Notes: generated by a model not told the origin, from the letters alone. A stretch of 64,000 bases of DNA from a virus (IMGVR_UViG_3300033463_000025:79759-143758), one strand, 5' to 3'. Counted from the first letter of the stretch, positions 13,177-39,567 are shown. Program-made: numbers and translations.

Positions 13177-13446
13177 ATTATACCACAAGGAATAACATTT
13201 GTCAATAGGTTTATTGAGTTATTTTATAAAAAGTTTTTCACATACATGAATCAAATTTTCCATCAAGCGACTTTTAAACTAAGTTAAAAAAAACGCTATA
13301 TAGATGTAATATATAATTAATTTATATAGAATACTCTATTAGTATATAATCATATCTAATATAATCATATACTATATAACCTATTATCAACTATAAGATT
13401 ATTAACTAATATAATAATTATCTATTAAGTTGATAATAGGTACGTC
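13177..13446 (-). repeat. left copy of long inverted repeat, including promoter
   Basis: Reverse complement aligns to 39304-39567, with 41 bp identical (13352-13392 vs 39355-39395). Internal dyad ACCTATTATCAACT..AGTTGATAATAGGT; TTGACA-17-TATAAT. Confidence 0.9.
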
Positions 13447-13696
13447 ACCTCTTTTTACAATTTTTCCGTATTTTGCAAAATTTCAGTTAAATGAAATGGC
13501 TGTTTTATTGTAGAAAGTTTACCTCCCTATCAGCTTCGCCCACCCCTCTCGTTCCTCTGTGGCGTTCATATTTTGGTAGGGCACTCAACTTTTCCGTTCA
13601 AAGCAATTTAAAATGGAAAGTTGAAGTTCGCAAATATATGATTATATCCTATATCATAGGATAGTTCGTTAATTCTATAACAAACTTTTTCAGCAT

Positions 13697-13800
13697 AAAA
13701 ATAACAGCCCCCTCGGACACAAGGGGCTGTCGGTGTCAAAAGACAACAAACAAAGGAGTTAGGGGTAACTATGTTCGCTTGTTACCATCTTTGTTCATTA
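13697..13800 (-). ncRNA. candidate small RNA antisense to early-gene leaders/RBS
   Basis: TTGACA(13829-34)-17-TATAAT(13806-11), 5' hairpin, CU-rich core AACUCCUUUGUUUGUUGUCUUUUGACA, terminator stem 13704-13730; no sense ORF. Confidence 0.7.
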
Positions 13801-13830
13801 AGCAAATTATACACTACTACTTGCAATATG

Positions 13831-14100
13831 TCAAGTAACATCTGGCGTAGGATATTCCACGTCGAAATCACCACGAACGGCGGCGAAGGTCAAGGATGAG
13901 ATATATGCGTCATTTGTTCCGTCGCCTATGGCTATATACATTCTTGTTTGCGGTCTGATAGTAAATGTCTTATCTTCATTTAGCTTGTAGCTCTTGTGAA
14001 ATGTAATCACAGCATTTCTAACTTCGTTCTTATTCCGCACGAACAAGCCTTTGCCTGTCGTACCAATGGTAATTTCCTTGTCGTTATACAAACTAATCAT
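13831..14100 (-). CDS. hypothetical protein
   Basis: GAGGTG RBS before MISLYN. Confidence 0.65.
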   Translation of the reverse strand: MISLYNDKEITIGTTGKGLFVRNKNEVRNAVITFHKSYKLNEDKTFTIRPQTRMYIAIGDGTNDAYISSLTFAAVRGDFDVEYPTPDVT

Positions 14101-14110
14101 AGTACACCTC

Positions 14111-15928
14111 TTATGCAACCGTTTCTTCCAACATGAGCACTTTGCTTTCGGGAGAAACGATAAAACGCTCACGCTGGGCGAATGTCTGATTGTACGATTC
14201 CTCGCCTTCAAATTCATCTATTACTCGGCGTTCTTCTTCGTCCATAGCTTTGTATGTTTTCTTTCCGTAGGACGGCGGCAACCAGCCCTTCTTCATACAG
14301 CCGTAAATGTTAAACTTCTTCAGAACGTCAAGGTCGGTAAACTTGATATGAACTGTACCCTTCTTGTACACGTTTACATCGAAATACTTGAAATGCAAAT
14401 TCTTTGTGGTCTGCGTTTTTTCGTATGCCTCTAACCAATGGTGAAGGTCGCGCTGAATTTCATTTTCTCCACCATCAAGGAAGTCAAAACACTTTTCAAT
14501 ATCGTCAAGGATTCTGCCGATTTCTCCGTCATAGAAGTTATACTTGAATTTACCCCAAATAGAATCCCAACATCTACACCACGGCACAACAACCCTGGGA
14601 TTGATGATGAAAGCAGAGTTAGATTTCCAACCGCTGAAGTAGTGAACGTTTCCACTTGCTTCCATTGAATGTTTGTATGTCAGCTTTTCAAAGAGCGATA
14701 TGATTTTATCCTCGATACCTTGAGCTACAGACTTGAGCATATCAATTCTTACAGCGTAGATATTTGACAACGAAAAATCCTTCTTGGCATATTCCTTTAT
14801 ATCGGCAAAATACTGTTCTTTAAGATTGGAAGTAAGATTGCCGATAAATGCAGGCTTATGTAAAAGCTCATACCAATATTTGTATCTTACGGAATAAACA
14901 TACTTGTTCCACTCAAAAGCCTTACCTCTTCCGTCTACCAGTCCGATATGTGCGCCGCGCTTGTATGAAGGCAACTCTTTTTCATCGCTGGCAAAGTATA
15001 AAGAAATATGCGGCGATACGGCAAGGTATTCTTCATACAGCCTCTTCCCCATCGCTATTTCTTTTTTATACATCAGCACAGCTTGACGCATATAATCAGC
15101 GGTCACAATTTCAGAAGTGTTATAGTCAGGCTCATCAACAGTGATTTCCATTTCCTCAAGCTCATCAAGGATTGTGGAATGTGCATTGTTGAACGGCGAA
15201 GGAATATCAATACGCACGATTGCACACTCAACATCTGTCTGGCGTTCAGCCTGTTTGAAAGCACCGCTAACATATTCAATCTCGGCATTGTAGAAGTCGA
15301 GCTGTTTCTTCAATTCTTTGCGCCAATTAGAATAGGGATTGTCAAGAGTCTGACGGTTAAGCAGACAAATAATCTTTCCGCCTGTTTTCTTGGCTACGTT
15401 GATTGCGTGAAGAAGATGCTCGTCGCCGTTGCTAAAAGGCGGATTCATAATGATTAAGTCGAAGTGTTCATCGCCGTTAAACTCTAAGAAGTCGCTACCA
15501 ATAACGGTATAATCTTTGTCTTTAAGGATTGCTCTAAGTCCGTCGTCAACCTCGATACAATTAACGTCTAACTTTTCACATCCCTCACGAATGTCACCAA
15601 TGAGATAACGCCTTTCATCTTCATCTTGGCTATACTTTCTTTTGTTATAGTCTGCTATCCATTGAGTAGTCATGTACTTATAAATCATTTCTTCATAAGT
15701 AATTTTATAAGCAACATACTCTTCAAAGATAGGGTCTTTATAACGATAGCTCCCCATTCTGTGGCTAACGCAGTAACGCATATAGCAAATGAAGTCTGCA
15801 ATATCACCCTTGCCTGCTGACGGCTCAAGCACACTCTCAATATCGGTCAACTTAATGCCTTTAATCATTTCCGCTACAAGTTCTGGCGGAGTCGGATAAA
15901 ATTCAGTTAATGATTTGTATGTACTCAT
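14111..15928 (-). CDS. N6-adenine-type DNA methyltransferase with DUF4942-like C-terminus
   Basis: FYPTP, VLEPSAGKG, IIMNPPF; C-terminal GWKSN and YFDVNVYKKGTVHIKF. Confidence 0.88.
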   Translation of the reverse strand: MSTYKSLTEFYPTPPELVAEMIKGIKLTDIESVLEPSAGKGDIADFICYMRYCVSHRMGSYRYKDPIFEEYVAYKITYEEMIYKYMTTQWIADYNKRKYSQDEDERRYLIGDIREGCEKLDVNCIEVDDGLRAILKDKDYTVIGSDFLEFNGDEHFDLIIMNPPFSNGDEHLLHAINVAKKTGGKIICLLNRQTLDNPYSNWRKELKKQLDFYNAEIEYVSGAFKQAERQTDVECAIVRIDIPSPFNNAHSTILDELEEMEITVDEPDYNTSEIVTADYMRQAVLMYKKEIAMGKRLYEEYLAVSPHISLYFASDEKELPSYKRGAHIGLVDGRGKAFEWNKYVYSVRYKYWYELLHKPAFIGNLTSNLKEQYFADIKEYAKKDFSLSNIYAVRIDMLKSVAQGIEDKIISLFEKLTYKHSMEASGNVHYFSGWKSNSAFIINPRVVVPWCRCWDSIWGKFKYNFYDGEIGRILDDIEKCFDFLDGGENEIQRDLHHWLEAYEKTQTTKNLHFKYFDVNVYKKGTVHIKFTDLDVLKKFNIYGCMKKGWLPPSYGKKTYKAMDEEERRVIDEFEGEESYNQTFAQRERFIVSPESKVLMLEETVA

Positions 15929-16296
15929 AATCTTTTCTCCTTTAACATTATTTTATTTGTCTTTTGACTTATGCTGTACGGTATTTTTTAACCTCAACCA
16001 ACGATATTATTATAGCCGATTTTCGTTAAATTGTCAAGTGATTTTACTTTTTTTTATGGTTTTTAATATTGTGGTTTTCTGTTTTAGTAATATAAATAAT
16101 TATATACATTACTGCCGCAATTTGTATAAAATCGTTTACATTATTTTGTTTTGAAAAATGACACCTTTTTGCGGACATCCGCAAATTGGTCTACAAAAAT
16201 CCCTTGTTTTTCAAAATAAAACCTTTTTGCCAACGCTGGCAAAATGGTAAAAGAAAAACCACAACCGAAGCTGTGGTTTTTTATTTATACCTCTAA

Positions 16297-16560
16297 TTAA
16301 ATCATAGCATATCTCCAACTGGAACACTCAATAGCATTTGTCTGTACATACACTTCTCCATCATGTGCATATAAATATTTACCTTCAACCCAATCGGAAT
16401 CCAAAGAATCTTTGACTAAAATACTATCCCCTTCTTGTAATACTATTTTATCATCAACAATTACATCTTCAATTCCGACTGAATCGCCGTATGGAGAAAA
16501 TGTTAAATCTTTTTCTCTGTTATATTTATAAGACACATTATTATTTGGAAACACTGTCAC
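16297..16560 (-). CDS. hypothetical protein
   Basis: ORF with RBS, followed by a terminator at 16254-16281. Confidence 0.6.
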   Translation of the reverse strand: MTVFPNNNVSYKYNREKDLTFSPYGDSVGIEDVIVDDKIVLQEGDSILVKDSLDSDWVEGKYLYAHDGEVYVQTNAIECSSWRYAMI

Positions 16561-16600
16561 GATTACACCCTCTTAAAACCATATTAAATTGCTATTATGT

Positions 16601-16852
16601 TTAATCACTACATATTTCTATTTCGTTAAACCCATTATTATTAATAACAAGTTTTTTTGCTTTTAATAATTCTGTTGCGCTTTCACAACTACCAATTTTT
16701 AAAGAAGGATATCCAACAACATTTCCATACCATACAAATGCACCACTTTTACGTTCCCAATATCCAGCATATGTACGACGCAAAGAAGAAGTTAAAACGT
16801 CTATGTTTAAATCTTCTTTAATTTTTTTAGATAACTTTTCAAATACAGTCAT
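16601..16852 (-). CDS. hypothetical protein
   Basis: ORF with GAGG RBS; RRTYAGYW..GAFVW. Confidence 0.7.
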   Translation of the reverse strand: MTVFEKLSKKIKEDLNIDVLTSSLRRTYAGYWERKSGAFVWYGNVVGYPSLKIGSCESATELLKAKKLVINNNGFNEIEICSD

Positions 16853-16886
16853 TTTTTCCTCTTAAAAACTATTGCTTTACCTGTAA

Positions 16887-17177
16887 TCAATCTATATACT
16901 TATTTAAAATAATTTTAATCATTCCCAACTTAGCTTCTCTTACAACCGAACACACTTCATGTAACTTAGTCATAAGAGTAAGTCCAATATCATCGTATTG
17001 AGTATATTCCGCTACAGTTTTAACACATACAATAAACAATTTTTCATAATCTCTTTCTGTTAAAGCCATAGCCTTTGACTCTGCTTTTCTAATTTCATCA
17101 AAATACCCAATCTTAATCATATTCCCGTTATGGTCTACAATCTTATACTTGACTTCATCTCGTGTATAAATCTGCAT
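16887..17177 (-). CDS. hypothetical protein
   Basis: ORF with RBS. Confidence 0.65.
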   Translation of the reverse strand: MQIYTRDEVKYKIVDHNGNMIKIGYFDEIRKAESKAMALTERDYEKLFIVCVKTVAEYTQYDDIGLTLMTKLHEVCSVVREAKLGMIKIILNKYID

Positions 17178-17191
17178 ATTTTCACTTCCTT

Positions 17192-17440
17192 CTACATCAC
17201 TTCCATAGGGTATATCTCAAATAAATCATAGTCAGCACCGTCAGCAGACATATACATTTTCACTCTATCAATGTCACCATCATAAAAGTATATATCGCCC
17301 TTAGAATTTACAGTCCATTCTAACTGAGAAAGTTCATAGGTTTTTTCACAGTATTTTTTACATTTCAATAATGAATCAAACACTTTTACTTCTCTTACTC
17401 CGCCATATTCATATCCAATAAGCAAAACAAATACTTTCAT
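17192..17440 (-). CDS. hypothetical protein
   Basis: ORF with GAGGTG RBS. Confidence 0.65.
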   Translation of the reverse strand: MKVFVLLIGYEYGGVREVKVFDSLLKCKKYCEKTYELSQLEWTVNSKGDIYFYDGDIDRVKMYMSADGADYDLFEIYPMEVM

Positions 17441-17458
17441 AATATCACCTCTTGAAAA

Positions 17459-17983
17459 CTACGTTTTATTCAATTCCTCTTCTAACAATAATTTTACTTT
17501 TTCAATCTCTTTTGACGTATGTGGCGTACCACCAGTATTCATCTCGATATACCATTGTAAAACTTCCGCTTTAGTTTTAAGGTCATTCACATTAAAAAGG
17601 AAATCAATCTCAAACGGCAATTTATCTTCAAATTCCTTATAATAATGACCAAACGCAGGTATTTCGTTATGCAAAAAGGCAAGCACAGCAGTTAGCCTTT
17701 GCAATCCATCCACACAAACAAACTCATCATTAGGACTATATCTATAATGCCAGTTAGGACAATTAAAATAAATAATCCTTGCAGATTTTCCACCTTGTAA
17801 AATAAACTCTACATAGGCAATTTGTTGAACTTTTGTCCACACATGACCTCTTTGAAAATCGGGATTTAATTGCAAATTAAGTTCATTAGTATAATCATCT
17901 AAAGTCTTTTCTAAATATCTCCAAGGCACATTAACTTGATAATGACCATCTCTTGTAAGTTGAGGTATTTCAGAAAATTTCAT
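17459..17983 (-). CDS. stand-alone DUF262 (ParB/Srx-like, GmrS-type) protein
   Basis: NPDFQRGHVW, VDGLQRLT and MNTGG motifs. Confidence 0.85.
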   Translation of the reverse strand: MKFSEIPQLTRDGHYQVNVPWRYLEKTLDDYTNELNLQLNPDFQRGHVWTKVQQIAYVEFILQGGKSARIIYFNCPNWHYRYSPNDEFVCVDGLQRLTAVLAFLHNEIPAFGHYYKEFEDKLPFEIDFLFNVNDLKTKAEVLQWYIEMNTGGTPHTSKEIEKVKLLLEEELNKT

Positions 17984-18019
17984 TATAATCACCTCTTATT
18001 CTATATACTTAATAAAATA

Positions 18020-18718
18020 TTATTCATCTATTATTTCAAATTCAAGCCCTCTTGTATCAACCACTATCTCATCTTCGTTTCTGGTGTTGAAATATGCAAG
18101 AGCTTGTGACTTGTTTATTGTGGCTTTCTGTATATAACCTTTTCCAAACCTATTAGCAAACCATTGTGCTGTTTTAAGATTCTGCGTCCATGATAAACCT
18201 TTCGGATTGTGCCCTGGCGTAATACCACGGTACACCGTTATAGTTTCTGGTAATGCTTTATATACCTCGTAATCTTCCGCGCACATTAATGTTTCTTTAT
18301 CGGCGTGTTTAAACCATGAAGCAAGAGTCGCAACAGAAACATTTACATCCTGATTTGGATTTTCCGACGTAATCCAAGCATCGGCAAGCAGAGAGCTAAA
18401 GTCTTTTACTGACACATAGTTCTTGATATACTTTAAGAAAGTGAGCTTATATGATTTTCTGACAATAACATAAATGTCAATTATATCGCTGGCTGATTTA
18501 ATGCGATTCTCAAGCTGAGAAGTCGCTTTCTCTAACGTGGTTTCGTCTTCAAGTATATTGCCAATAGTAAAGTTTCCGTTGTCATTATAAGGGATAAGGG
18601 CTGATTCAAAAATCGGGTGCATAACGACAATAGGCGAATATTCAGTTTCTTCTACTGGCAGATATAAGAACATCAACGCAACTTCTTTTACCTTGTCAAG
18701 ATTTGTTTCTTTTCTCAT
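18020..18718 (-). CDS. ADP-ribosyltransferase-fold protein (putative)
   Basis: R-S-E triad: TVYRG, GLSWT, NEDEIVV. Confidence 0.6.
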   Translation of the reverse strand: MRKETNLDKVKEVALMFLYLPVEETEYSPIVVMHPIFESALIPYNDNGNFTIGNILEDETTLEKATSQLENRIKSASDIIDIYVIVRKSYKLTFLKYIKNYVSVKDFSSLLADAWITSENPNQDVNVSVATLASWFKHADKETLMCAEDYEVYKALPETITVYRGITPGHNPKGLSWTQNLKTAQWFANRFGKGYIQKATINKSQALAYFNTRNEDEIVVDTRGLEFEIIDE

Positions 18719-18733
18719 AAGTAATACCTCTAT

Positions 18734-18940
18734 TTATTTTGATTCAGCTTTTTCAAGCCGTGTCCATAGCTTTTCACTCAACCACATTTTGTTAAAGCAG
18801 GTTGTTCCAAAGTGTTCAGCCGTTCCGTCAGAGTATTTGACTGTAACTATTTCTGTTATCCATAATCCGCATTTATCGCAAGTGCAACCGTTGTTTCTTC
18901 CAACCTTGTTGGTCGTGATACTTCTAATGCTTTTCATCAC
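18734..18940 (-). CDS. small zinc-finger protein
   Basis: CDKCG...FGTTC. Confidence 0.6.
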   Translation of the reverse strand: MMKSIRSITTNKVGRNNGCTCDKCGLWITEIVTVKYSDGTAEHFGTTCFNKMWLSEKLWTRLEKAESK

Positions 18941-18948
18941 TTTTTCCT

Positions 18949-19293
18949 TTACTCTTGTTTTAAATACTTTTCTTTAAAATCAGCCTTGAAAAATTTACAT
19001 ATTTCTTCGGCAATCTCACAAGCTGATTCAACTTCTTTGATAAATAATTTAACACAATCAGAATTTCCGTTAAGTGATACTGTATTTATTTCATAATTAC
19101 TATCAAGTTTATTATCATCCGCCATTACATATAAATATATTTTTGCTCGGCTAACAGGGAATGAATGATTGATATGCACATCAAATGTGCGGTTTTCATA
19201 CCAAGTAAACCAAAACTGTGTTTCAATATTTAGATTAAATCTAAAAAATATTCCGTCATCCTCAAGCGATTTTTTATATTCAAGTATGAACAT
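18949..19293 (-). CDS. hypothetical protein
   Basis: ORF in operon. Confidence 0.65.
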   Translation of the reverse strand: MFILEYKKSLEDDGIFFRFNLNIETQFWFTWYENRTFDVHINHSFPVSRAKIYLYVMADDNKLDSNYEINTVSLNGNSDCVKLFIKEVESACEIAEEICKFFKADFKEKYLKQE

Positions 19294-19316
19294 TATAAAT
19301 TCACTTCTTTCTTTAT

Positions 19317-19679
19317 TTAGTTACCGCCTTTTAGCTGTGTTAAATCATAATTCAAGCGTACCCAATCATCAAAGCCAAGAACGGTATCAGTGTTCTTTTC
19401 GACATATTCCTCCATCAATTCTTCTTCAAGTCTGCAACCATCAACGCTATAATATACCCAATGGAGCTGTCCATATGTGTACATATTATTAATCTCGTTT
19501 CTGATTTTTACATCGCTTTCGCCGTAGTATTCCTGTCCTACAAAATGTTCTAAATCGCCTATATCCTCAAGTCCTGTGTAATAGTCGATTCTGTCATTAA
19601 TGATAATAGCCAAAACAAATCTGTTGTTATCATCTGGCATCGTAAACTTTAATACTTTACCAATAGTCGGGTTTTTCAT
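19317..19679 (-). CDS. hypothetical protein
   Basis: GGAGG RBS. Confidence 0.7.
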   Translation of the reverse strand: MKNPTIGKVLKFTMPDDNNRFVLAIIINDRIDYYTGLEDIGDLEHFVGQEYYGESDVKIRNEINNMYTYGQLHWVYYSVDGCRLEEELMEEYVEKNTDTVLGFDDWVRLNYDLTQLKGGN

Positions 19680-19697
19680 ATAAAATTCCTCCTTTTG

Positions 19698-20207
19698 TTA
19701 TATATTTTTTCCGTCATTTAGTAAAAAGTAACCTTCATATTTGCAACCTACGGTCTTTGCAAATTCTTTACGTTCATCGTCGGTCAGCTTGTCGGTCGTT
19801 AATCTACGTTCAACGCTCTGAATGTAGTGATGATGATTATACTTGCTGATAACGCTTTTAACTGTATCGTTGCTTATTGTTTTGAAGTTAGCTCCTACAT
19901 CTTTTCCGCTGTTCTGAATTATAACCATGCACATACGTTGCCAAGCTATACGGTCGCCGTTAATGGCTTTCTTGAGCATTTCGTTTAGGTTATCGCCTTC
20001 AATTACCTGCCCATTCTTATTGATGAGCCTCGCAACATATTGAACACCTGCGATTTTAGCTATTGTTCTAAGCTGTGCTGTGGTAAATTTACCACGCAAA
20101 CACTTTGTAGAGAAATTAGCGACGCTTGCACCGATAGCTCTTGCATAGTCGTCAACATTTGTTCCTGTTAAATAGGATAGCATAGCAAATTTCTGTTTGT
20201 AATCCAA
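19698..20207 (-). CDS. tandem XRE-like HTH regulator (putative)
   Basis: Internal repeat GKFT..QL..IA...G..Y / DKLT..E...A...G..Y; resembles 23688-24107. Confidence 0.55.
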   Translation of the reverse strand: MDYKQKFAMLSYLTGTNVDDYARAIGASVANFSTKCLRGKFTTAQLRTIAKIAGVQYVARLINKNGQVIEGDNLNEMLKKAINGDRIAWQRMCMVIIQNSGKDVGANFKTISNDTVKSVISKYNHHHYIQSVERRLTTDKLTDDERKEFAKTVGCKYEGYFLLNDGKNI

Positions 20208-20381
20208 TCTCTTCGCCTCCTTTTGCTAAATTATACCACACCTACAAATCTACGTCAAGTATTTTTGCGCTTTCTTTTAATTTTTAATATTCAATTTTTC
20301 CGTTAGTTGTAAACAATAAATCTTTGTTTTTCAAAATCGGCTTTTTCTGCTGGCTAAAACAAAACCGCCGAAGCTCGGCGG

Positions 20382-20738: not shown

Positions 20739-20741
20739 CTA

Positions 20742-20936
20742 CTATGCAAACTTAGATGCTAAACACCTATAGTAATCTCGCCGTTCTCTTATTTCCTGCC
20801 ACTTGTTATCTTGTCCGTGTTCGCTTTCATAATCGGTCATCTTGATAGAGTAATCCTTTGCCGTAAGCATCAGAACGGCGTAAATTTTACTTGATTCTAA
20901 TTTGGTAAGTTCTACTGTCATACTTTTCCTCCACAT
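20742..20936 (-). CDS. hypothetical protein
   Basis: Short ORF with a GGAGG RBS before the internal MTVEL. Confidence 0.55.
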   Translation of the reverse strand: MWRKSMTVELTKLESSKIYAVLMLTAKDYSIKMTDYESEHGQDNKWQEIRERRDYYRCLASKFA

Positions 20937-21352: not shown

Positions 21353-21355
21353 AGC

Positions 21356-31020: not shown

Positions 31021-31641
31021 TTAGTCAATAGGAGATACAAAGATAGTAGATTTGAAGATAAAAAACGGACGAAGCCCAATCACGCCGTAGTAGCTGACGT
31101 AGTAGATGCTACCGAGAGGCGACACACAAAGAGCTAATGAACTATCATAGTGAGGTAGTGTGCTCCAAGCCGTTGCAAGCCACCACCAAATATCTAACTT
31201 ATATTTGTCAAAAATTTCTGTGTTTGCGCGGTAGAAGTCAAGAGTCGCAAGGCTGATTCGTGAAGTCATAGTGCCAAATACCTTTAACCCATCAAGAGTA
31301 GTCAGGTCTGTGGTAAATTCTAAAACATTATCATCACCAACAGCGGCAATTACCTGCGGCAGATATTCTTCCTTGAGAAGCGTTAATGCGTGACTCTTGC
31401 TAAAGTCGTTTGTGTTGTCGTCAAACTTTTCATCAGTATAAACTGCGTCTTTAGTCATAACAACAGCTTTTCCATCGCTCTCGGAGAACTTAATAAATGT
31501 GATTCCGCCAATCTCAAAAGTGCTTCCATCTTCGATTTTTGAAAGCTGGACGGTTTTTCTGTTTGCTTTGTTTACGAGGCTCAGAAGGTTTGCTCTTTCC
31601 TCTTCAGTCAGGTTATCCATATTGATTGTGATAGTTTCCAT
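31021..31641 (-). CDS. DGR target protein 2 (remote paralog of target 1)
   Basis: TDLTTLDGLK, WWWLATA, CVSP..GLRPF..IFVSP. Start reset to METITI. Confidence 0.9.
   Translation of the reverse strand: METITINMDNLTEEERANLLSLVNKANRKTVQLSKIEDGSTFEIGGITFIKFSESDGKAVVMTKDAVYTDEKFDDNTNDFSKSHALTLLKEEYLPQVIAAVGDDNVLEFTTDLTTLDGLKVFGTMTSRISLATLDFYRANTEIFDKYKLDIWWWLATAWSTLPHYDSSLALCVSPLGSIYYVSYYGVIGLRPFFIFKSTIFVSPID
31063..31133 (-). repeat. DGR variable repeat VR2
   Basis: 13 mismatches to TR, all at TR adenines. Confidence 0.95.
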
Positions 31642-31917
31642 AATGCTTACTCCTTTGTAATATAGTATTTGTCTTTGTGACATCCTTATTATAACATAAT
31701 TCAATAGTTTAGTCAAGTTATGTTATAATTTTTATAATTACCTTTTTCTGTTCAGATTCATCAAGAAATAATAGTTTTTCAAAAATAGATTTTTCTGAAA
31801 TTTTCCACCAACTATTATTATTTTGCAAAATTGATTATTCTTGCGCCATGACGCAGAATTGTTCAATATCAAAAACTAAAAGCCACAACAGAAAACCCGC
31901 CTTTCGGCGGGTAACTG

Positions 31918-32421
31918 TTAATCCTCATACTCCCTTGAGAGTATAAAGTCATATCGTTCGCAGTCGTCTACAAAATCTGTGTCGGGATTATAAATCAGGT
32001 AAGTCAGCATCAGTGTACCGTCACTAATAGGAATACCCAAATCAAAGTATGAAATATAATTGTATTCTGATTCCGTGTTCAATATTCTCCCGTCACCTTT
32101 GGTTTTATTAACAACTTTTCCGATAACTCTTTCAACTATAAGCGTATTGCTTGCCGTTCTGGTTTCGAGGATTTCAGCGGTCAGCTCATCGGGATTATAA
32201 ATCTTGAAATTTTCCAAATCTAATATGAAGTTTTCCTCTAATGGTTTATAGGGATATTGTTCATCAAGTGTGATTTCATCCATTGTGGTTTGCTCGGCTG
32301 GTTCGTTTACTTGCCCAACAGCATTGAAAATCGCGCCAACTGTTCCCAATAAAGACATCACAACTAATAGTGTTGCAAAAATAATAATAAATACCATAGT
32401 AAATTTATTCATGGTCTGCAC
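31918..32421 (-). CDS. N-terminally membrane-anchored or exported protein
   Basis: Hydrophobic N-terminal helix followed by an acidic domain. Confidence 0.75.
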   Translation of the reverse strand: MQTMNKFTMVFIIIFATLLVVMSLLGTVGAIFNAVGQVNEPAEQTTMDEITLDEQYPYKPLEENFILDLENFKIYNPDELTAEILETRTASNTLIVERVIGKVVNKTKGDGRILNTESEYNYISYFDLGIPISDGTLMLTYLIYNPDTDFVDDCERYDFILSREYED

Positions 32422-32426
32422 CTCCT

Positions 32427-32681
32427 TTATAATCTCACGCCGTAATTCATGTTGATTTCAATATCTGTGCCGTCGAAATTGCCGCCCTGCTTTTTGAAGT
32501 GTTCCTTGCAATACTCAATAGCTTCATCCTCAGACTTGGTAAAGCGTCCGATTCCGCAGTAATAATATGTTTTGCCTGCATCAACACTTGTGTAAACCTG
32601 TGCATTGTGTGTGTACCCGTCAACAGGGAAGTACATTTTCTCGATTCCGTATCTGAATTTTATTTTGCTCATGTTTTCCAA
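32427..32681 (-). CDS. hypothetical protein
   Basis: Promoter plus RBS. Confidence 0.65.
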   Translation of the reverse strand: MENMSKIKFRYGIEKMYFPVDGYTHNAQVYTSVDAGKTYYYCGIGRFTKSEDEAIEYCKEHFKKQGGNFDGTDIEINMNYGVRL

Positions 32682-32997
32682 CTCCTTAATATATTATGTC
32701 TTTTGACAATCTAATTATAGCAAATCGTCGGTTGTTCTGTCAAGTATTTTCCCGCGTTTTATTAATTTTTAATATCTCAAATTCCTGCGTGATTTTCCTC
32801 TGCCTGGTCTGCTCGGCGCAGGATTCCTTTGTTTTCCAAAATCAAACTTTTCTGTTGAGCAAAACAGTTTTTCTTAATATTTCAAAATCAAATTTTCCAC
32901 CAACTATATAACCCAATAAACGAAAATCACCAGAGCCGAAGCCCTGGTGATTCCCGCAAATAGAAAGGAGATTTATGAAAACAAATAAAAGTGGATG

Positions 32998-33294
32998 TCA
33001 AATTGTAAAAGCCTGCCCAATCTGCTCATAGTCAGTAGCAATAAATGGTTTCTGAAGATATGCTTCGATGCCGTTCATCAGAGCCTTCTCGATTGCGTCC
33101 TCATTATACTTGCCCTGTTTGTAACTATAGCCCCAGCGAAAAATCTTCATCAGCTCCGCAACTTTTTCAGCGGTAGTGCTCTTGTCAAAAACTCTTTTTA
33201 AAAAATCACAGTGCGCCAGCGCATAGTTATAAGCGATTTTCTGTTCGGCTGAACATACTCTAATGCTAACTTTAGATATTTTGTGCAACTTCAT
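32998..33294 (-). CDS. hypothetical protein
   Basis: Start reset to MKLHK. Confidence 0.7.
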   Translation of the reverse strand: MKLHKISKVSIRVCSAEQKIAYNYALAHCDFLKRVFDKSTTAEKVAELMKIFRWGYSYKQGKYNEDAIEKALMNGIEAYLQKPFIATDYEQIGQAFTI

Positions 33295-33590
33295 TTTGGT
33301 TTGCTCCCTTCGGTTTATTACAATCGTATTGTAGCACGTCCGCGTTATTTTGTCAAGATATTTTCCGCTATTCATTACTTTTTAATATCAGCGTTTTCTG
33401 CTCTCCGTGCGGTCGGCAAAGAGTTTTAATTTTGCAAAATCATATTTTTCTGTTGCTCCTGCGGATGCCAGCACAGAAATTTTCCATTTTTCAAAATTAA
33501 GATTTTCCGTTACTAATAAGCAATAAGAAAAACGCCGCCTGTTGGCGACGTTCTTCTTCTGCTCAACTATATCTTTTCTCTTTAGGAGGA

Positions 33591-33923
33591 TTAATCTATT
33601 GTACGGTAAAAATAATCGAGCTGTTCACCCTTCAGATTTTCCCTTGCATAATTGTCGGCGGTCTCCCAGAGTTCATTGTAAACTTCCGCGTAGGCTTTAT
33701 GCCCTGCGTTATAATGCTCCCAAATTTTCCAATTAAGAGCCATTACTAACTCTGTTAAGTAGATGTGGTTATTTTTCCAAGCTCTCATCGCTCTGCGGTA
33801 AGTGTCGCGGATTGCGGGGATGCCGAATCGGTCAGCGATAGAAAAGTCCATGTAGAAAGTAGTCTGAGGCTTGTAACCTGTGATTGCCTCGATATTCCAG
33901 TCTTTGTAAGTCATTGTAGCCAT
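33591..33923 (-). CDS. hypothetical phage protein
   Basis: TTFYMDFSIAD..LTELVMALNWKIW; own promoter and terminator. Confidence 0.8.
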   Translation of the reverse strand: MATMTYKDWNIEAITGYKPQTTFYMDFSIADRFGIPAIRDTYRRAMRAWKNNHIYLTELVMALNWKIWEHYNAGHKAYAEVYNELWETADNYARENLKGEQLDYFYRTID

Positions 33924-34263
33924 TTGTCAAATCTCCTTTGTTATAGTTTATTTTGTCTTTTGACAACCTTATTATAACAAATAGGTTTTTATTTGTCAAG
34001 ATATTTTCCGCTATTTAATAATTTTTAATATTGCGTTTTTCTGTTGCCATGGTTCTGTCGCGGCTCGCCCAGCGCAAGGAATCTTTGTTTTTCAAAATCA
34101 CGATTTTCTGTGGAGCTTCAACAGAAAAATCAAATTTTCCAAAATAAAGAATTATAGCGCGGTCGCGCAGAAAAGTGGGATATTTCAAAATCAAGTTTTC
34201 CGTTTACTATTAGCGGCAAAAAAAACAACCCGCCTTTCGGCGGGTCTGCTTTTGTGTTTTTCC

Positions 34264-34758
34264 TTATGCTGTAATTCTCGCTTGCTCTTCGGTCTCAACT
34301 TCCTGACTGCCCCAAAGATTTCTAATTTCATTCATTGTATAGGTTTTCTTGCCCTTCTTCACATAGTCCTCAGTGTGATAATACCATGCAGACTTGTTTT
34401 TGCTCCATCTGAACTTTAATTCCTTCAAGATTTCCTTGTACGGTTTAGTGTTACCAGAGAGCCAGAGCCACGAGCCGCAAATCTCAATAAGCACGTTTTC
34501 AAAGTGAATCAGCTTGTTGATGATTTCGATAAATTCAGCAGGCTTTTCCTTTACCTCGGTGTCGGTCGTGTAGACTTCACCCTTCGCGTTGGTGTGGGTA
34601 TTCTTGAGCAGGTGGAATAATGTCTGATACTCGTTGTTGATTTCTTTCATGTCCTGTTCAAGTCCGCCAATGTCGGGATGATGCTCCATCGCTAACTTGC
34701 GGTACTGCTTCTTCAGCTCTTCCAGTGTACGCGGATTTTCAAACCATTTTGTTCTCAT
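34264..34758 (-). CDS. J-domain (DnaJ-type) protein
   Basis: LKKQYRKLAMEHHPDIGG..MKEINNEY. Confidence 0.88.
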   Translation of the reverse strand: MRTKWFENPRTLEELKKQYRKLAMEHHPDIGGLEQDMKEINNEYQTLFHLLKNTHTNAKGEVYTTDTEVKEKPAEFIEIINKLIHFENVLIEICGSWLWLSGNTKPYKEILKELKFRWSKNKSAWYYHTEDYVKKGKKTYTMNEIRNLWGSQEVETEEQARITA

Positions 34759-35114
34759 AATGACAACTCCTTTAAAAATATTTTATTGTCTTTTGACATC
34801 TATATTATAATGCCGCCCGTTCGTATTGTCAAGTATTTTTGCTGTGTTTATTGATTTTTAATATTTCATTTTTCTGTCCTGGTGCCTCGGTCGCCAGAGC
34901 GTCCGCAGGTCAGCAGGATTGCTTTGTTTTTCAATATTGAGATTTTTTGCTGAAGCTCCGCCTCGCGGTCGCTGGATTCCTTTATTTTGCAAAATCAAGA
35001 AAAACTGTTGCTCCCCAGCACGGGAGAACAGAAAAGTATAATTTTGAAAAATTAAGTTTTTCTGCGATGCCAGGCAAAAAGAAAAGCCGCCTCGGTCGGC
35101 GGCTCTCGCGTTGG

Positions 35115-35348
35115 TTAAATATCATACACTCCGTTCTCTTCTTGTCTCGCTAAGATAGCATCTTCATAATCAGGATAACTACAATTATAAGCGTTATAAG
35201 GTGAAGTCTTATAGCCTCTCAATCCATCGGTGCAAATCTTGCCGTTCGTGATAGCGTAACAGTTATTACACAGTCCATCGCAAATCTGATTCTTCCATTT
35301 ACATTTAGTGCCGTAAATATCTTTTACATAGTCTGGTATAATAGTCAT
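35115..35348 (-). CDS. small Cys-rich protein
   Basis: Start reset to MTIIP. Confidence 0.6.
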   Translation of the reverse strand: MTIIPDYVKDIYGTKCKWKNQICDGLCNNCYAITNGKICTDGLRGYKTSPYNAYNCSYPDYEDAILARQEENGVYDI

Positions 35349-35362
35349 TGTTATAACCTCCT

Positions 35363-35632
35363 TTATATGTATTGAAGTCTTTTTAATCCCCAATCAGTTA
35401 TTCTTTCTTTAACGTATTTTAATTCCCAATCTTCAAAACCCTCTTTGAATAAGTAGCCGAAAATCATCAAGGAATAATCAACTGCATCTTCAAATTGTAA
35501 AAACGGGTCGAATCTGTTAATCTCTTCGCCTGTCTCGTGTCCTTCGTGCATTAAGCAAACGAGGCAAGCGATTAGCTTTTCCGTATTAAGTGTATAAATA
35601 CTTGCTCTTTCTTGAATTTCTTTTGTAGTCAT
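35363..35632 (-). CDS. hypothetical protein
   Basis: Start reset to MTTKE. Confidence 0.65.
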   Translation of the reverse strand: MTTKEIQERASIYTLNTEKLIACLVCLMHEGHETGEEINRFDPFLQFEDAVDYSLMIFGYLFKEGFEDWELKYVKERITDWGLKRLQYI

Positions 35633-36552
35633 AATCAAAATCTCCTTTGACAAATTTATTGTGGTTATAATATATCATAGACTTTGATATGCTGTCAAGT
35701 ATTTTCAGTAAATCTATTAATTTTTAATATTCAAGTTTTCTGTTGCTCCTTCCCTGGTGCATGGTGCTTCAGGTTTCCTTTGTTTTGCAAAATTCAATTT
35801 TTCCGTTATACCCATATGCACGGTAGCAATTAATCTTTATTTTTCAAAATTAAGATTTATTGTTTACTCTCCACTGGTTGATGCAGAAATTATCCATATT
35901 GAAAAATATTGTTTTTTTGAATAATAGTATTTTCCTCTGGTCAGATAACTTGTCATATATTGCAAATTATCTTTTATATCGCCGTTTAACTTGCAGTATT
36001 TTACAAATTAACTACAATGGTTTTTCTCGCGTCCTCTCGCGCTCTCTGTCTCTGTTTTACGCTTTAATAATATCCAGTTATTCTTTTATTGATTCGTTCA
36101 ATACAGGGCAATTCTCGCAATAATAAAGCTATGGTTTCACGGCTCAAATTTTCCATCAAGGGCAGGCAGTAAAAGAAGATTCAAATTTTCCATCAAGGCG
36201 GATGCTCCAAACTCTTTAACCTCGGTGATACAATAAATCTTTATTTTTCAAAATTATATTTTTCTGTTGCATTATCTTTTCCATAGTCGCCAATGAATAT
36301 GATGTTATATAGTATATTATATCTTCCTCTTTTTTCCTCTTCCCTCTCTCGCTCGCCGTTCCACTGGTTGCCGTCCGCGTTTTCCTTGCTCGCCGTCGGT
36401 CGGTCAGAATTTCCCAATATTGCAAAATGAATTTTTCCAAAGTCGCCATAACAGATAATTATAATTTTCCAATATAGTGAATTTTTGTTCAGTGAAGTTT
36501 TCTTCAGCATAAGTAAAGCCCCGCAGGATTTTCCCGCAGGGCTGTCGGTCGG

Positions 36553-36855
36553 TTAGGCTGTTTTCTTTTTCCTCGGCTCAAATTTTCCTATTGCCAGCAT
36601 AAAGCCAATAATAAATATTATTACTATAGCAGTAATATCTGTTTTTCCGTTCACCGTGTCAAGTATTCCACTAAATGATAATAGGATTGCAGAAGTCATA
36701 ACAATTATTCCAGCCAGCCGCGTATAACGTGCAAGTCGTTTTTTTCTTTTGCTTTCTAACTTTCTTCGGCGGCTCTTGCGCTGAAGCTCAAGAAATTTCC
36801 GCCTCTCGTCAAGTCTGATATTTTCCAAGTCAAGGTCGTTTAAATAGTAGGTCAT
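36553..36855 (-). CDS. basic two-TM membrane protein
   Basis: Arg/Lys-rich N-terminus and two hydrophobic helices. Confidence 0.7.
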   Translation of the reverse strand: MTYYLNDLDLENIRLDERRKFLELQRKSRRRKLESKRKKRLARYTRLAGIIVMTSAILLSFSGILDTVNGKTDITAIVIIFIIGFMLAIGKFEPRKKKTA

Positions 36856-37320
36856 AATTTCCAGCTCCTTTGATTTCTGTTTGGTTTCTGTTTGTCTTTT
36901 GACATTTTCCATTATAATGCCGTAAAAGAATTTTGTCAAGATATTTTCCGTAAATCATTATTTTTTAATATCAAATTTTCCTGTTTGTCACAGCTCAAAT
37001 TTTCCAAAATGATTGCCTGGTCAGATTTTCCTTCTTGACATCTTCCGCCAAGCAATATATGATTATTTTTAGAAATTGAAATTTTCTGCTTGCTCAGGTT
37101 GCTCCGCCGCAAATTTCCGCGATTTTGAAAAATAAAGAAATTCTGTAGGGACGCAGGCTGAAGCCAGGGAGAAGCCACAGAAAAAGATAATTTTGCAAAA
37201 TTGAAAATTTTTGCGGATGCAGGCGGCTCAGACGCAGAAAAATTGAATTTTGAAAAATAAAGTTTTTCTGCGGGAGCACAAAAAAAAATGACCCGCCTTT
37301 CGGCGGGTCTGTCGGTCTGA

Positions 37321-38199
37321 TTAGCGGCTGATGTACTTGTTGTAGATTTTGACTAACTTCTGAGCTGTGACCTGTGCTTTGTGCTTCCTGTAGCTGGTCT
37401 TGTTGGGGTATCTGGTGCTGTCCTTCGGCTCGTCGTTGAAGTGCAGGATGAAGTTGTTGATGATTGCGTCAACCATCTCGGTACAACATTTCGCCGCCTT
37501 CATGTACTGCTTCGCGCTGATGAACTTGCAGATTCTGAACTCGATTCTGTTGTCGTGCTGGAGGTTGATGAAGTTGCGGTGCTCGCTCGCGCTGGTGTAC
37601 ACGCTATAGCCGCAAGCCCAGCCGCCCAGTGCTCTTCCGAACAGCTCTGCTGTTGCTGTCCTGTTAGCTTCCATCGCTTCGGTGAGCGGTACGAACAGGC
37701 TGTTGCAGAATCGGCGGATATAGTCAACGGTGACTTCGTTGATGTGCTCTGTGTCGCCTATGTTCAAGTGAGTGCCGCAGTTGCTGTGGATGGTGTTGAA
37801 GTCGCCTGTTGCGTTGAGTCGCTCGACGGTCTCGCAGTCCTTGCTCAGTGCGTTGAGTCCGCGATAGATAGCAGTCTTGTACTCGATAGCAACAGTGCTG
37901 TCAGAAGTCGCCAGCCAGCCGCGCCCCAGGAACTCGATTCTTGCGCGCTCTGAGTCAGCCATAGACTCAAATTCAACGCCGTAGGTTTTGTTGTTGGCTT
38001 TGACTTTGCCGTGAATAGTCGTAGACTCAGCGTAGTAGCTGTCACGCCTGGAGGCGCAGTACGGACACAGGTACGCCGCGCCCATGCCGTGAGCGTCCGC
38101 GTATAAGCCGCCGCGGTCGTTTTTGTAGACGCGAACCATGCGCTCTACGTTGTCAGTGTGATGGCAGTTAGGATTGATACAGGTTGCAGTGATTTTCAT
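37321..38199 (-). CDS. amidoligase (COOH-NH2 ligase, Amidoligase_2-like)
   Basis: YGVEFE, SDST, EYKT, CGTHLNIG, RNFIN, RIEFR; visibly GC-rich. Confidence 0.82.
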   Translation of the reverse strand: MKITATCINPNCHHTDNVERMVRVYKNDRGGLYADAHGMGAAYLCPYCASRRDSYYAESTTIHGKVKANNKTYGVEFESMADSERARIEFLGRGWLATSDSTVAIEYKTAIYRGLNALSKDCETVERLNATGDFNTIHSNCGTHLNIGDTEHINEVTVDYIRRFCNSLFVPLTEAMEANRTATAELFGRALGGWACGYSVYTSASEHRNFINLQHDNRIEFRICKFISAKQYMKAAKCCTEMVDAIINNFILHFNDEPKDSTRYPNKTSYRKHKAQVTAQKLVKIYNKYISR

Positions 38200-39303
38200 A
38201 GCTAATCTCCTTTGCTTTGGCTCCCGTCGTGGGAGGCGGTTTGTTGTGCTTTCGACACCATTATCTTAGCACGAGCCGCGCCCAGATGTCAAGCTAAATT
38301 TTGCAAAATCCTGATTTTTTGCTTATATTCGTGCAATTTGAACAGTTGACACGGTTTATTTTTGCGGTCTTTTGTGCAATATTCACAAAGCCTCTTTCGT
38401 CAATTTGCACAATTAGCAGGTAGGTTATTTGTGCAGTTTGCTATCTGTCATCGCCCTGGTGCCTGAGCGCGAACACGGGCGTAAATTTGCTATTAGTTTT
38501 ATTATAATAACATAATTTGCACAAAAATTTTGGTCTGTCGCAAGCCCTGGTGAAGTCGTCAAAGTACGAAAAACGGTACTCTGAAAAGCGAGAAAATGTG
38601 AAGATTTTTCACCAAAACGAACCAGACGAAAAAAGACAGGAGAGCTATTTAAAATTTATTTTAAATAGCTCAACTTCGGTGGATGTGAAAATTTTTCACC
38701 ACTTCCCGAAGCAAAAAATCTTGATTTTTCAAAATCAAGAAATTCTGATGAAATCCCTGTTTTATTACCTACGGTAATAACTCTCGGTAACTGAAGGTTT
38801 TGCAAAAGGCTACAGTTACCACGGAATTATGACGGTTAGCTTTAGCTAACCGCTCACGAACCAACCTACGACGGGGGTAGGTTTACATCTCCAACCTTTC
38901 TTCTACCCTTAAACCTCTTAATAGGAGCTATCCCCTAAACTCCCAAAAATTCACTTCTCTCCGATTCTCTTTTCCTTATTCCTCACTATCCCAAAAAATG
39001 ATAGGTTGCAACTTAAAAACGAAGCCACAAACCGAATAAAAATAACCTACCGTAAAAATGGCAGGTTGATTTTTCTCATCGGCTGATGCTCGGCAAAGCC
39101 GTAAAATACAGGTCGAAGGTTTATTCTTTTAGCTTATACCCTTAATTTAACTTGCAAGCTGTAAAAGTCTGATATAATTATACGCCCGAAAATTGAGTAA
39201 TCGGGCTTAATTTTTTACCTCGTGTTTCTTGTGGTTTGGAATAGGATTGCCAGCTTTTTGATTCAAATTCAGCTCGAATTTGCAAAATTGAATTTCCGAA
39301 GTG

Positions 39304-39567
39304 GACGTACCTATTATCAACTTTAGTTAATTATTATATTAGTTAATAATCTCAAGTTGATAATAGGTTATATAGTATATGATTATATTAGATATAATAA
39401 TTAACTAATAAGGTATTCTATTATAATATATTATATATACCTATATATATGTCATTTTTGGCGTGAGTTTGTACGCAAGTTTGGCGTGTTTTTGTTTTCA
39501 GAAATACGCAACTTTTTATAAAATATTTTTATTATACTATTGACATTTGCTGTAATTGTGATATAAT
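39304..39567 (+). repeat. right copy of long inverted repeat, including RNAP promoter
   Basis: See left copy. Dyad arms 39309-39322 and 39355-39368; TTGACA(39540)-16-TATAAT with extended TG. Confidence 0.9.

Follow-up and report, generated by a model that had tools for sequence, protein, structure and literature searches.

The question raised by this locus is why a large rumen phage (143,758 bp, circularly assembled) carries two inverted copies of an AT-rich sequence at the two ends of its early gene array. The window analysed here was a stretch of 64,000 nucleotides of this genome (IMGVR_UViG_3300033463_000025:79759-143758), and coordinates refer to the window unless the genome is named. An earlier note on the window had proposed duplicated control elements, twin replication origins, or crossover sites that invert the array, and had leaned towards control or origin. 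The iteron cluster, the melting ranks, and the recurrence in relatives reported below support this leaning. The modules are more likely to be sites at which DNA copying starts or is controlled than a switch that flips genes, because related phages keep the same paired layout.

The inverted repeat pair

The left module (IR-L, 13297-13446, minus strand, GC about 0.15) is about 150 bases long and consists of an iteron cluster and an AT-rich tract. Its inverted partner (IR-R, 39304-39450, plus strand) lies 26 kb away, where leftward early genes give way to the rightward genes for RNA polymerase (RNAP) and structural proteins. The copies were 90.9% identical over 121 columns. Repeat searches recovered arms at 13309-13392 and 39355-39438 (84 nt, 87%), at 13396-13424 and 39324-39352 (29 nt, 97%) and, in the promoter part, at 13200-13235 and 39510-39545 (36 nt, 81%). 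An exact stretch of 41 nt (13352-13392) is the reverse complement of 39355-39395. The inverted repeat with 41 identical bp described earlier was thus confirmed by repeat search, BLAST, and global alignment, and both of its junctions were reproduced by independent Logan contigs.

When 39304-39450 was compared with the whole genome by BLAST, the matches were the query itself and 13446-13326 (E = 2e-35). No third copy was found genome-wide at E <0.001, apart from self-inverse words within the module, so the design is restricted to two sites. Identity in the global alignment was 0.8-1.0 in the module, dropped to about 0.5 in the 60 bases that follow, and recovered to about 0.7 where the promoters lie. 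Similarity reaching the promoters had also been claimed; it is present there, but as a shared promoter class and not as an extended duplication; promoters of the same class are also present at 4157, 10379, and 11432 (families D11 and I5). Past the module, the inner flanks were without similarity (local score 29 vs. a shuffled mean of 28.5). Between the modules (13447-39303, minus strand) lies the early array of about 50 small genes, in which one promoter family is represented 15 times and the repeat CAGAAAA..TTTTGCAAAAT has 21-22 copies.

Iterons and duplex stability of the modules

The dyad with a long spacer reported for each copy was present in both. In the left copy (13379-13441) it reads ACCTATTATCAACT, 35 nt, AGTTGATAATAGGT, with arms at 13379-13392 and 13428-13441, and the spacer contains one more AGTTAATAAT-type repeat. 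In the right copy (39309-39368) the arms are 15 nt long (39309-39323 and 39354-39368) and the spacer is 30 nt, or 32 nt when 14-nt arms are counted. Searching the window for the dyad 14-mer with up to two mismatches yielded four matches, all exact, against 0.83 expected, and four matches were reached in 1 of 100 shuffles. These four are also the only exact copies in the genome.

The modules are clusters of a 10-nt repeat, AGTTRATWAT, and the dyad is the outer pair of each cluster, which explains its long spacer. This repeat occurs 14 times in the 143,758 bp. Eight copies are inside the modules, three in the left and five in the right (39313(-), 39325, 39341, 39355(+), and 39397(-)); the remaining six are scattered singles, where a Markov model expects 5.2 copies genome-wide. 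Since the spacer itself contains additional copies of the arm motif, an iteron cluster describes the site better than a simple recombinase core.

The extremely AT-rich tract noted in each copy was borne out by GC contents of 0.10-0.15 and by the least stable duplex of the genome. By nearest-neighbour duplex stability the modules were the two lowest sites of the genome (ranks 1 and 2) at scales of 60, 100, and 150 bp, with z values of 4.1-4.8 compared to 3.1-3.7 for the next site. Modules of related phages ranked similarly: 1-3 for the three modules of G001 and 1-2 for those of G002, at 100 and 150 bp. Those of G003 ranked 1 and 2 at 100 bp, and at 150 bp the primary copy alone was in the top six. 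Two features of an iteron origin were therefore found, namely an adjacent AT-rich unwinding element, as judged from these ranks, and repeated, putatively protein-binding words confined to the site, the latter in both the window phage and G001.

Outward promoters and flanking genes

Each module is followed by an outward-facing sigma-A promoter, as the earlier note had described. On the left (13177-13205, minus strand) TTGACA at 13205 is separated by 17 nt from TG-TATAAT at 13177 and has an upstream TTTTATAAAA element; read on the minus strand, the order is dyad, AT tract, promoter. On the right (39540-39567, plus strand) TTGACA at 39540 and TG-TATAAT at 39567 are 16 nt apart. Both promoters had consensus scores of 12/12, a TG ahead of the -10 element, and a distance of about 90 bp from the module. 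The left one, of promoter class D11, drives a tyrosine recombinase, and the right one drives the RNAP operon via a 150-nt leader. The genes flanking the modules encode the recombinase and a methyltransferase.

The recombinase gene (12214-13146, minus strand, ATG at 13146, RBS AAAGGAG) encodes 310 aa, lacks a long N-terminal core-binding domain, and matched Pfam Phage_integrase (E = 3.8e-8) and phrog_216 (E = 1e-26). Residues R80/R81, K112/K115, H187-x-x-R190, H217, and Y226 were invariant in 4/4 orthologues, and we take them to be the R-K-H-x-x-R-H-Y catalytic set. With the full set present, the enzyme is predicted to be catalytically intact, in agreement with the earlier description. The RNAP (39721-42519, plus strand, 932 aa), a YonO-like single-chain RNA polymerase, matched phrog_25339 (E = 4e-182); a tblastn comparison also aligned it with SPbeta yonO, at 25% identity over residues 125-613 (E = 1e-19). 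The label MrpR-like given to the gene at 10469-11410 has very little support: its match to Pfam MrpR_N_CB was weak (E = 0.1), and no tblastn match was found in 50,697 phage records and no match in PDB.

Related phages

Conservation in relatives, on which the earlier note had let its reading depend, was found in 3/3 related rumen phages examined (G001, G002, and G003), where the paired inverted layout recurred with unrelated sequences. One module stands ahead of the YonO-like polymerase operon, and the inverted one lies 9-11 kb into the early array. The pair encloses the array and leads up to the recombinase in the window phage but not in the three relatives (one of four phages overall), in which the second module is mid-array, 9.5-13.5 kb from the orthologous recombinase. 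A 16-nt iteron of G001, TTAAGACTATTCTTAA, occurred 13 times with at most one mismatch, at a spacing of about 31 bp, and all 13 copies were in its three modules (0 expected).

The score for module similarity within vs. between genomes was 204 vs. at most 62 for the window phage and 173-237 vs. at most 63 for G001, and in G002 and G003 each copy was nearest to its orthologue and not to its partner in the same genome. It follows that the two-copy state is old and maintained. A strong outward promoter was present 45-100 bp from the AT-rich end in six of the nine module copies seen (two in the window; one primary copy each in G001, G002, and G003; one second copy each in G002 and G003; two extra copies in G001), and also in the single copy of locus L001. 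No adjacent consensus promoter was seen at the two extra copies of G001. By locus, an outward promoter at this distance was found in L001, L002, L003, L004, L056, and L049. In 8 of the 13 loci examined, the 100-bp site of lowest stability lay 297-1,799 bp upstream of the start of the RNAP gene, and dyads with 12-16-nt arms and 25-32-nt spacers preceded the RNAP gene in L001, L002/L015, L003, and L004/L013. The other five loci, from more distant relatives (L005, L007/L009, and L014/L105), showed no module that stood out upstream of this gene.

Genome position and replication genes

The right module occupies the gap between divergent early and late genes. Cumulative GC skew was lowest in the genome bin at 114-116 kb, about 3 kb from the right module, and highest near the integrase (genome 30-32 kb), a pattern confounded by the co-orientation of all genes with the presumed forks, the minimum coinciding with the switch in gene orientation. 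The phage encodes an SPP1-like toolkit of DnaB-type helicase, primase, Sak annealase, exonuclease, SSB, and Holliday-junction resolvase, in genes 41-77 kb from the modules. Among PHROGs and Pfam matches in the early region, where many ORFs are unassigned, no initiator, helicase loader, Rep, or partition protein was recognised; a cognate initiator encoded by the element, expected of an iteron origin and usually located next to or around it, was thus not found by these matches. No DnaA-box cluster was present, with two perfect boxes genome-wide and none with up to one mismatch at 12000-14500 or 38000-40000 of the window.

The k-mer depth of the 26,022-nt inter-module contig was 1.11x and 1.21x that of the outer contig (two runs, one sample), which is a weak hint of origin activity. 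Strain mixture or base-composition bias could cause such a depth difference.

Functional interpretation

We tentatively read the modules as paired iteron-plus-unwinding units of the replication-origin type, like SPP1 oriL/oriR, and consider this a real possibility. The AGTTRATWAT repeats, in both orientations, would be sites for a phage-specific DNA-binding protein beside the DNA that is most easily unwound. The right module would be the primary origin, since early and late transcription diverge there and cumulative GC skew is lowest. The left module may serve as another origin, or as an auxiliary site to which the same protein binds. Firing from it could proceed outward and opposite in direction, or it could arrest the leftward fork and thereby set off the change to concatemer synthesis that has been proposed for SPP1 oriR. 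Through the strong outward promoters some 90 bp off, occupancy or opening of the modules may be coupled to the expression of both the RNAP operon and the recombinase/MazF/MrpR-like block. What the sequences show is the repeat, its internal structure and instability, its confinement to two sites, and the recurrence of the paired design in relatives; that a protein binds, that the modules act as origins, and what part each copy plays are inferred.

Promoter placement near the AT-rich ends fits a promoter-control element equally well. The modules would then be upstream control regions through which a phage repressor, an activator, or an architectural protein, such as the HU-like one encoded at 45958-46245, co-sets the late-gene RNAP and the recombinase/MazF/MrpR-like block, possibly by looping between the copies. 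A polar and constant layout speaks for such a role: in both window copies the dyad is followed by the AT tract and then, some 90 bp on, by a consensus promoter that faces outward, and in the six loci named above this promoter is at 45-100 bp. The primary module, always ahead of the RNAP operon, would be a natural master switch. The promoter of the SPbeta yonP-yonO operon is one of ten MrpR/SPBRE targets described in the cited text (PMC10516654). Nevertheless, we regard control as doubtful, if conceivable. No adjacent consensus promoter was seen at the two extra G001 copies, the module repeats are absent from other promoters, and promoters of the array and the regulatory block have different conserved elements of their own (D1, D3, D4, and D11). 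Elements of 150-230 bp with GC 0.07-0.15 and at least five repeats, centred 100-250 bp upstream of the -35 element, would also be unusual for a sigma-A operator. That the modules are pac sites for the small terminase is very unlikely in our view, even though repeats flanking a bendable AT tract suit terminase binding, as in lambda cosB and SPP1 pac. Five Enterocloster phage records begin 251-851 bp ahead of the RNAP gene, and the genome opening point reported for SPbeta-like phages is between yonR and yonP (bioRxiv 10.1101/2021.11.22.469490), a divergent gap that precedes the yonP-yonO operon and is topologically equivalent to the one here. This SPbeta gap, however, has no AT-rich iteron module. 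The PhageTerm-defined pac of Enterocloster phage PMBT24 (PMC11035940) is at position 1 of its record, 9.6 kb from the RNAP gene, and bears no similarity to the 228-nt AT palindrome ahead of that gene. Moreover, packaging from two inverted pac sites would run in opposite directions, and the terminase genes lie at a distance of 8 kb.

Two sites in inverted orientation in 4/4 phages, and a non-integrase tyrosine recombinase that keeps the complete R-K-H-x-x-R-H-Y set in the same four, would also suit crossover sites at which this small enzyme inverts the intervening segment (26 kb here, 9-11 kb in the relatives). A candidate 13-7-13 core with an identical asymmetric 7-nt spacer (ATTAGAT) is common to both window copies, at 13341-13373 on the minus strand (13-nt arms, 2 mismatches) and at 39374-39406 on the plus strand (left arm and spacer identical, right arm degenerate with 3/13 mismatches). 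Identity between the copies is highest exactly at this site (41 nt exact), and the G002 copies also share a 13-7-13 site (1 and 2 mismatches). We still judge inversion unlikely. G003 had no shared core at this threshold, imperfect dyads are common in AT-rich repeat DNA (26, 8, and 15 candidates in the G001 copies), the modules are much larger than a core site, and the recombinase gene adjoins a module in one of the four phages and is unlinked in the others. Inversion would alter no promoter-gene link, as both promoters are outside the segment. Logan contigs (k = 31) end at the 41-nt exact repeat and are compatible with either orientation of the segment. In the comparison of array orientation proposed in the earlier note, inter-module genes had the same co-directional orientation in all four assemblies, the window included.

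Comparison with known systems

Duplicated sites of dyad or iteron type, bound by a single protein, are known from herpes simplex oriS, phage P4 ori/crr, and lambda OL/OR. oriS lies within inverted repeats between divergent promoters, and ori and crr cooperate at a distance. The organisms and proteins are unrelated, and the analogy is architectural only. The yeast 2-micron plasmid has inverted repeats with FRT sites for its own tyrosine recombinase, Flp (13-nt arms and a short asymmetric spacer), and an origin near one repeat. It is far-fetched, and we think it most improbable, that the twin modules and the non-integrase tyrosine recombinase are a phage version of this amplification device. Replication would start at the module beside the RNAP operon, and, before the distal module has been replicated, the recombinase would act at the 13-7-13 core to exchange strands; one fork would flip, the forks would chase each other, and concatemers would be spun out. 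If so, concatemers for headful packaging could come from a single initiation. Differences from the 2-micron plasmid are the weak core candidate, the iteron/AT make-up of the modules, and a link between recombinase and module in one of four phages.

SPbeta, as portrayed in the cited account, is a similar case: a large and temperate phage of Firmicutes that encodes a YonO polymerase, with tyrosine-recombinase-fold proteins nearby and a repeated element at the polymerase operon promoter (PMC10516654). Its SPBRE spans 15 bp and recurs at about ten promoters, whereas the module motif clusters at two sites only and is not, as expected of an MrpR operator, repeated at many early promoters. In lactococcal c2-type phages (Ceduovirus) the origin is described from the gap between divergent early and late modules and is, as here, non-coding and promoter-flanked, with diverse sequence and conserved function (PMC7150918). 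It differs in being a single copy in a 22-kb genome, with function demonstrated by plasmid replication.

SPP1 is reported to have two origins about 13 kb apart, each combining direct repeats with an unwinding element rich in AT; gp38 binds both, and oriR is the proposed fork barrier for the theta-to-sigma switch (PMC6316719; PMC3485210). Unlike in SPP1, no gp38/gp39 homologue was recognised in our phage, neither module is inside an initiator gene, and the modules are inverted, each with an outward promoter and one at the RNAP operon, with no sequence similarity to oriL/oriR. The two systems are alike in their two dispersed units of repeats and AT unwinding element, which in SPP1 as here are among the strongest AT islands (PMC6316719), and in the toolkit of DnaB-type helicase, annealase, exonuclease, SSB, and resolvase.

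Structure of the paired modules

Two copies of a short AT-rich unit lie in inverted orientation at 13297-13446 (minus strand; left module) and 39304-39450 (plus strand; right module). They share 90.9% identity over 121 columns with 41 bases exact, and the 14-mer forming the arms occurs four times, all exact, against 0.83 expected. These data confirm the inverted repeat with an internal dyad claimed in the earlier note, and the paired element is real and non-chance. The module sequence was reproduced in independent Logan contigs, both from the sample that is probably the source and from another sample. A genome-wide search for a third copy was negative. The earlier note had followed the similarity outward to the promoters; what is shared there is instead a class of promoter found at 4157, 10379 and 11432 as well. 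On the inner side no extension of the repeat beyond the modules was found, the flanks being unrelated, and the duplicated unit is therefore approximately 150 bp.

The dyad described as having a 32/35-nt spacer is the outermost pair within a cluster of the word AGTTRATWAT, present five times in the right module (39313-, 39325+, 39341+, 39355+, and 39397-) and three times in the left. Eight of the 14 occurrences genome-wide fall within the modules' 300 bases, and the remaining six correspond to chance level. A second word, ATTATATTAG, is found twice per module copy, the modules holding 4/5 of its genomic copies. Module GC content is 0.10-0.15, and a nearest-neighbour stability scan identified the modules as the genome's least stable 60-, 100-, and 150-bp stretches. 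Single-stranded folding yielded two or three adjacent hairpins per module (z -3.8; -5.1 and -6.7 in relatives). In a 1.1-kb gene-poor stretch adjoining the right module on its inner side, the palindrome GTGAAAATTTTTCAC is present at 38598-38612 and 38685-38699, 87 bp apart; it has five strand-wise matches within the window (0.65 expected).

Modules in related phages

Fifteen viral loci encode relatives of the RNA polymerase (RNAP). The nearest isolate-derived relative is in a Ruminococcus sp. genome (RNAP identity 53%). In the closer clade (RNAP identity 53-62%) the gap preceding the RNAP operon keeps the same order of parts, though sequences differ: array-type repeats, dyad(s) with arms of 12-16 nt and spacers of 25-32 nt, a (TA)-rich tract, and an RNAP-facing promoter (TTGACA-17-TACAAT). 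In 8 of the 13 loci examined, the 100-bp stretch of lowest stability is found 297-1,799 bp upstream of the RNAP start; these loci represent five lineages, including that of Enterocloster phage PMBT24. No such site precedes the RNAP gene in the other loci (L005, L007/L009, and L014/L105). In PMBT24, an isolated virulent phage, a 228-nt palindrome (L062 9072-9299; 83% self-complementary, GC 0.07-0.17) stands directly ahead of the RNAP gene, and the accessible portions of the genome paper do not mention it (PMC11035940).

Three larger records of related phages (G001, G002, and G003) were each searched with their own module, and all three contain a second copy inside the early array, the minus-strand genes that in the window lie between the modules. 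Compared with the primary copy, which precedes the RNAP operon, one copy is inverted in every case. The layout is conserved in all three, with differing sequences. G001, apparently a prophage carried by a cultured isolate of Ruminococcus, has two additional copies arranged back to back (66.9-67.6 kb); each contains five 16-nt iterons at an even spacing of ~31 bp, a dyad, and a (TA)n run. Seen as a whole (locus L030), this region comprises two complete facing modules ~220 bp apart, which together make up a 700-bp palindrome that contains 5+5 iterons and has a (TA)n run at either end. The second copy of G002 is at 27.8 kb and that of G003, which is diverged, at 117.0 kb; at both an outward consensus promoter was again recognized by eye. 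Within their own records the module copies hold instability ranks 1-3 (G001), 1-2 (G002), and 1-2 (G003, whose second copy ranks two at 100 bp only). In the window phage and in G001, the copies of one genome resemble each other far more than they resemble those of other phages; in G002 and G003 each copy is closest to its orthologue. This pattern indicates that the pair is old and has been homogenised in some lineages.

An early array bounded by the modules, with the second module directly upstream of the recombinase gene, was found as claimed, but in the window phage alone. In the other three phages the second module is mid-array, 9.5-13.5 kb from the recombinase gene, which there has an ordinary promoter. 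A small protein encoded just inside the second module of G001, G002, and G003 looked ribbon-helix-helix-like by eye and was dropped as evidence, since Pfam searches returned nothing significant and no homologue was found in the window genome (best E 0.014).

Promoters and transcription signals

The outward-facing promoter claimed for each copy was found at both, matching the sigma-A consensus at 12/12 positions with an extended -10. A second promoter class, with the upstream element TTTTATAAAA, is located at 4157-4211, 10379-10433, 11432-11486, and 13177-13231 on the minus strand and at 39514-39558 on the plus strand. Several members of the class have a palindrome, TCAATA-N2-4-TATTGA, that overlaps the -35 and is a candidate repressor operator controlling the regulatory block; its left half-site is missing from the RNAP promoter. 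A terminator-like hairpin with a T-run (39598-39615), in the 150-nt leader between promoter and RNAP start codon, is a possible attenuator of polymerase expression.

The early array has its own promoter family, fifteen minus-strand copies in 16028-36984 (CTTGACA, 17 nt, TATAAT) with a conserved upstream AATATTAAAAA. The same interval contains 21-22 copies, frequently 57 bp apart, of the repeat CAGAAAA..TTTTGCAAAAT. It resembles SPBRE in distribution and is a candidate early-array operator or bent-DNA element. Related motifs extend to the inner edge of both modules. Immediately inside the left module, 13697-13834 (minus strand) looks like a small RNA gene, with a 12/12 consensus promoter (13834-13806) followed ~95 nt on by a strong terminator (13731-13703).

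Genome setting and regulatory block

The window makes up the final 64 kb of a viral contig of 143,758 bp. The two contig ends share a 127-base overlap, indicating a circular assembly. From 38,200 back to genome position 34 kb, minus-strand early genes encode nucleotide metabolism, a PolIII-alpha-like polymerase, primase, DnaB-type helicase, Sak annealase, SSB, several methylases, and a diversity-generating retroelement (DGR). The plus-strand genes begin at 39,721 with the RNAP, continue with terminase, portal, and structural genes, and wrap round as far as an integrase at about genome 33 kb. A sequencing search listed 11 bovine, goat or gut runs, and those containing the sequence are bovine gut metagenomes. 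The stretches 12000-16000 and 38200-42600, used as nucleotide queries on 50,697 phage records, produced short chance-level matches only.

The first early gene beside the right module (37321-38199, minus strand) has a GC content of 0.49 and positive GC skew in a 37% GC genome, and looks like a recent acquisition. The DGR has a reverse transcriptase (RT; genome 79433-80263), Avd, and a template-like repeat. Repeats of the system are at 838-945, 1349-1456, and 31021-31128, and genes at 978-1349, 1349-2017, and 31021-31716. One target-gene repeat adjoins the DGR; a second, 79% identical (family D9), is in a paralogous gene 30 kb off inside the early array, and both genes match phrog_9958. An Rfam scan returned nothing in 38100-39800 and, in the whole window, only tRNAs (Met, Gln, Met; 3516-3593 and 3694-3768 on the minus strand, 43646-43721 on the plus strand) and an abiF RNA above gathering score (45878-45914, plus strand).

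Four phages share the gene order RNAP, module, variable early array (19-26 kb), recombinase, small gene, MazF-like toxin, 313-333-aa recombinase-fold protein, and DGR. The polymerase (39721-42519) proved to be a YonO relative, as stated earlier. The tyrosine recombinase (12214-13146, minus strand) is predicted to be catalytically intact, in line with the earlier note: R80/R81, K112/K115, H187-x-x-R190, H217, and Y226, which we take to be the catalytic set of the family, are present and invariant across four orthologues. Among the 25 of 148 matching records listed, its best phage matches come from streptococcal and Bacillus cereus-group phages (~30% identity) and are small 'site-specific recombinases' encoded mid-genome. 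There was no support for a YopP/YopR identity of the block to the left of the module, with no SPbeta-type record among those 25. PDB sequence searches with this protein and the 313-aa recombinase-like protein (10469-11410) gave no meaningful match. The MazF/PemK-like toxin gene (11486-11890; Pfam E 4e-22) and the conserved 71-aa gene preceding it (12002-12217), both on the minus strand, are syntenic with the recombinase in 4/4 phages and possibly form a toxin-antitoxin pair within a putative lysogeny block.

Function of the modules

The best-supported reading is that the modules are origin-type nucleoprotein sites, because the binding words are restricted to the site and adjoin the genome's most meltable DNA, the design is conserved while sequence turns over, and a second copy is maintained. 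The site also occupies the gap between the divergent early and late genes, where GC skew is at its minimum, although skew there is confounded with gene orientation. These features agree with the leaning of the earlier note towards control or origin function over inversion. On the other side, an initiator was not found, and a host DnaA-dependent origin was rejected, no DnaA-box cluster having been detected. In two runs of one sample the depth of the inner contig was 11% and 21% higher, which fits a copy-number gradient among other explanations. A transcriptional control element accounts for the modules about as well, given their tight, polar coupling to strong promoters.

Inversion of the 26-kb segment between the modules by the recombinase is possible but less likely. 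A 13-7-13 site is common to the two window copies, its asymmetric spacer identical in both; the site in G002 is better, and the recombinase is conserved and apparently intact; yet the shared core is absent in G003, the recombinase-module linkage is not conserved, and both promoters are outside the segment. Array orientation was the same in 4/4 assemblies including the window, with none opposite. Searches via the recombinase for near-identical phages with the opposite arrangement gave nothing useful in viral contigs (9 loci, all ≤31% identity) or metagenome contigs (24 loci, all ≤38%), and exact-pattern dyad scans had 0 matches in either, the window's own records being possibly masked. Logan contigs (k=31) from four runs placed on 11800-15000 all stop at the 41-nt repeat; the inner contig (26,022 nt) ends in it on both sides, and the repeat unitig has approximately double depth. 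A role as packaging (pac) site is suggested by position in SPbeta only (bioRxiv 10.1101/2021.11.22.469490). PMBT24 contradicts it: there the experimentally placed pac site (PMC11035940) is separated from the RNAP gene by 9.6 kb and bears no relation to the AT palindrome that precedes this gene.

Taken together, the elements are most likely origin-type or control-type protein-binding modules. They are a variant of a known element type, sharply bounded, with two or three sites per genome and a layout kept in several lineages. To our knowledge, large phages of gut and rumen Clostridia with a YonO polymerase have no defined replication origin, packaging site or early/late switch element, and our literature searches found no description of such modules. 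Since G001 is an apparent prophage of a cultured isolate, replication start and late-polymerase timing are directly testable.

General points of comparison are the 2-micron model, HSV oriS, P4 ori/crr, and lambda cosB. The closest documented cases are oriL/oriR of SPP1 (PMC6316719; PMC3485210) and the c2-type origin in an early/late gap (PMC7150918). The annealase, exonuclease, SSB, and resolvase of the SPP1 model are all encoded by the window phage. The second module may, by analogy, act as another origin or as a fork barrier that sets off concatemer synthesis. If the second copy is a fork barrier or recombination partner, the SPP1 model of the theta-to-concatemer switch would extend to a very different phage group.
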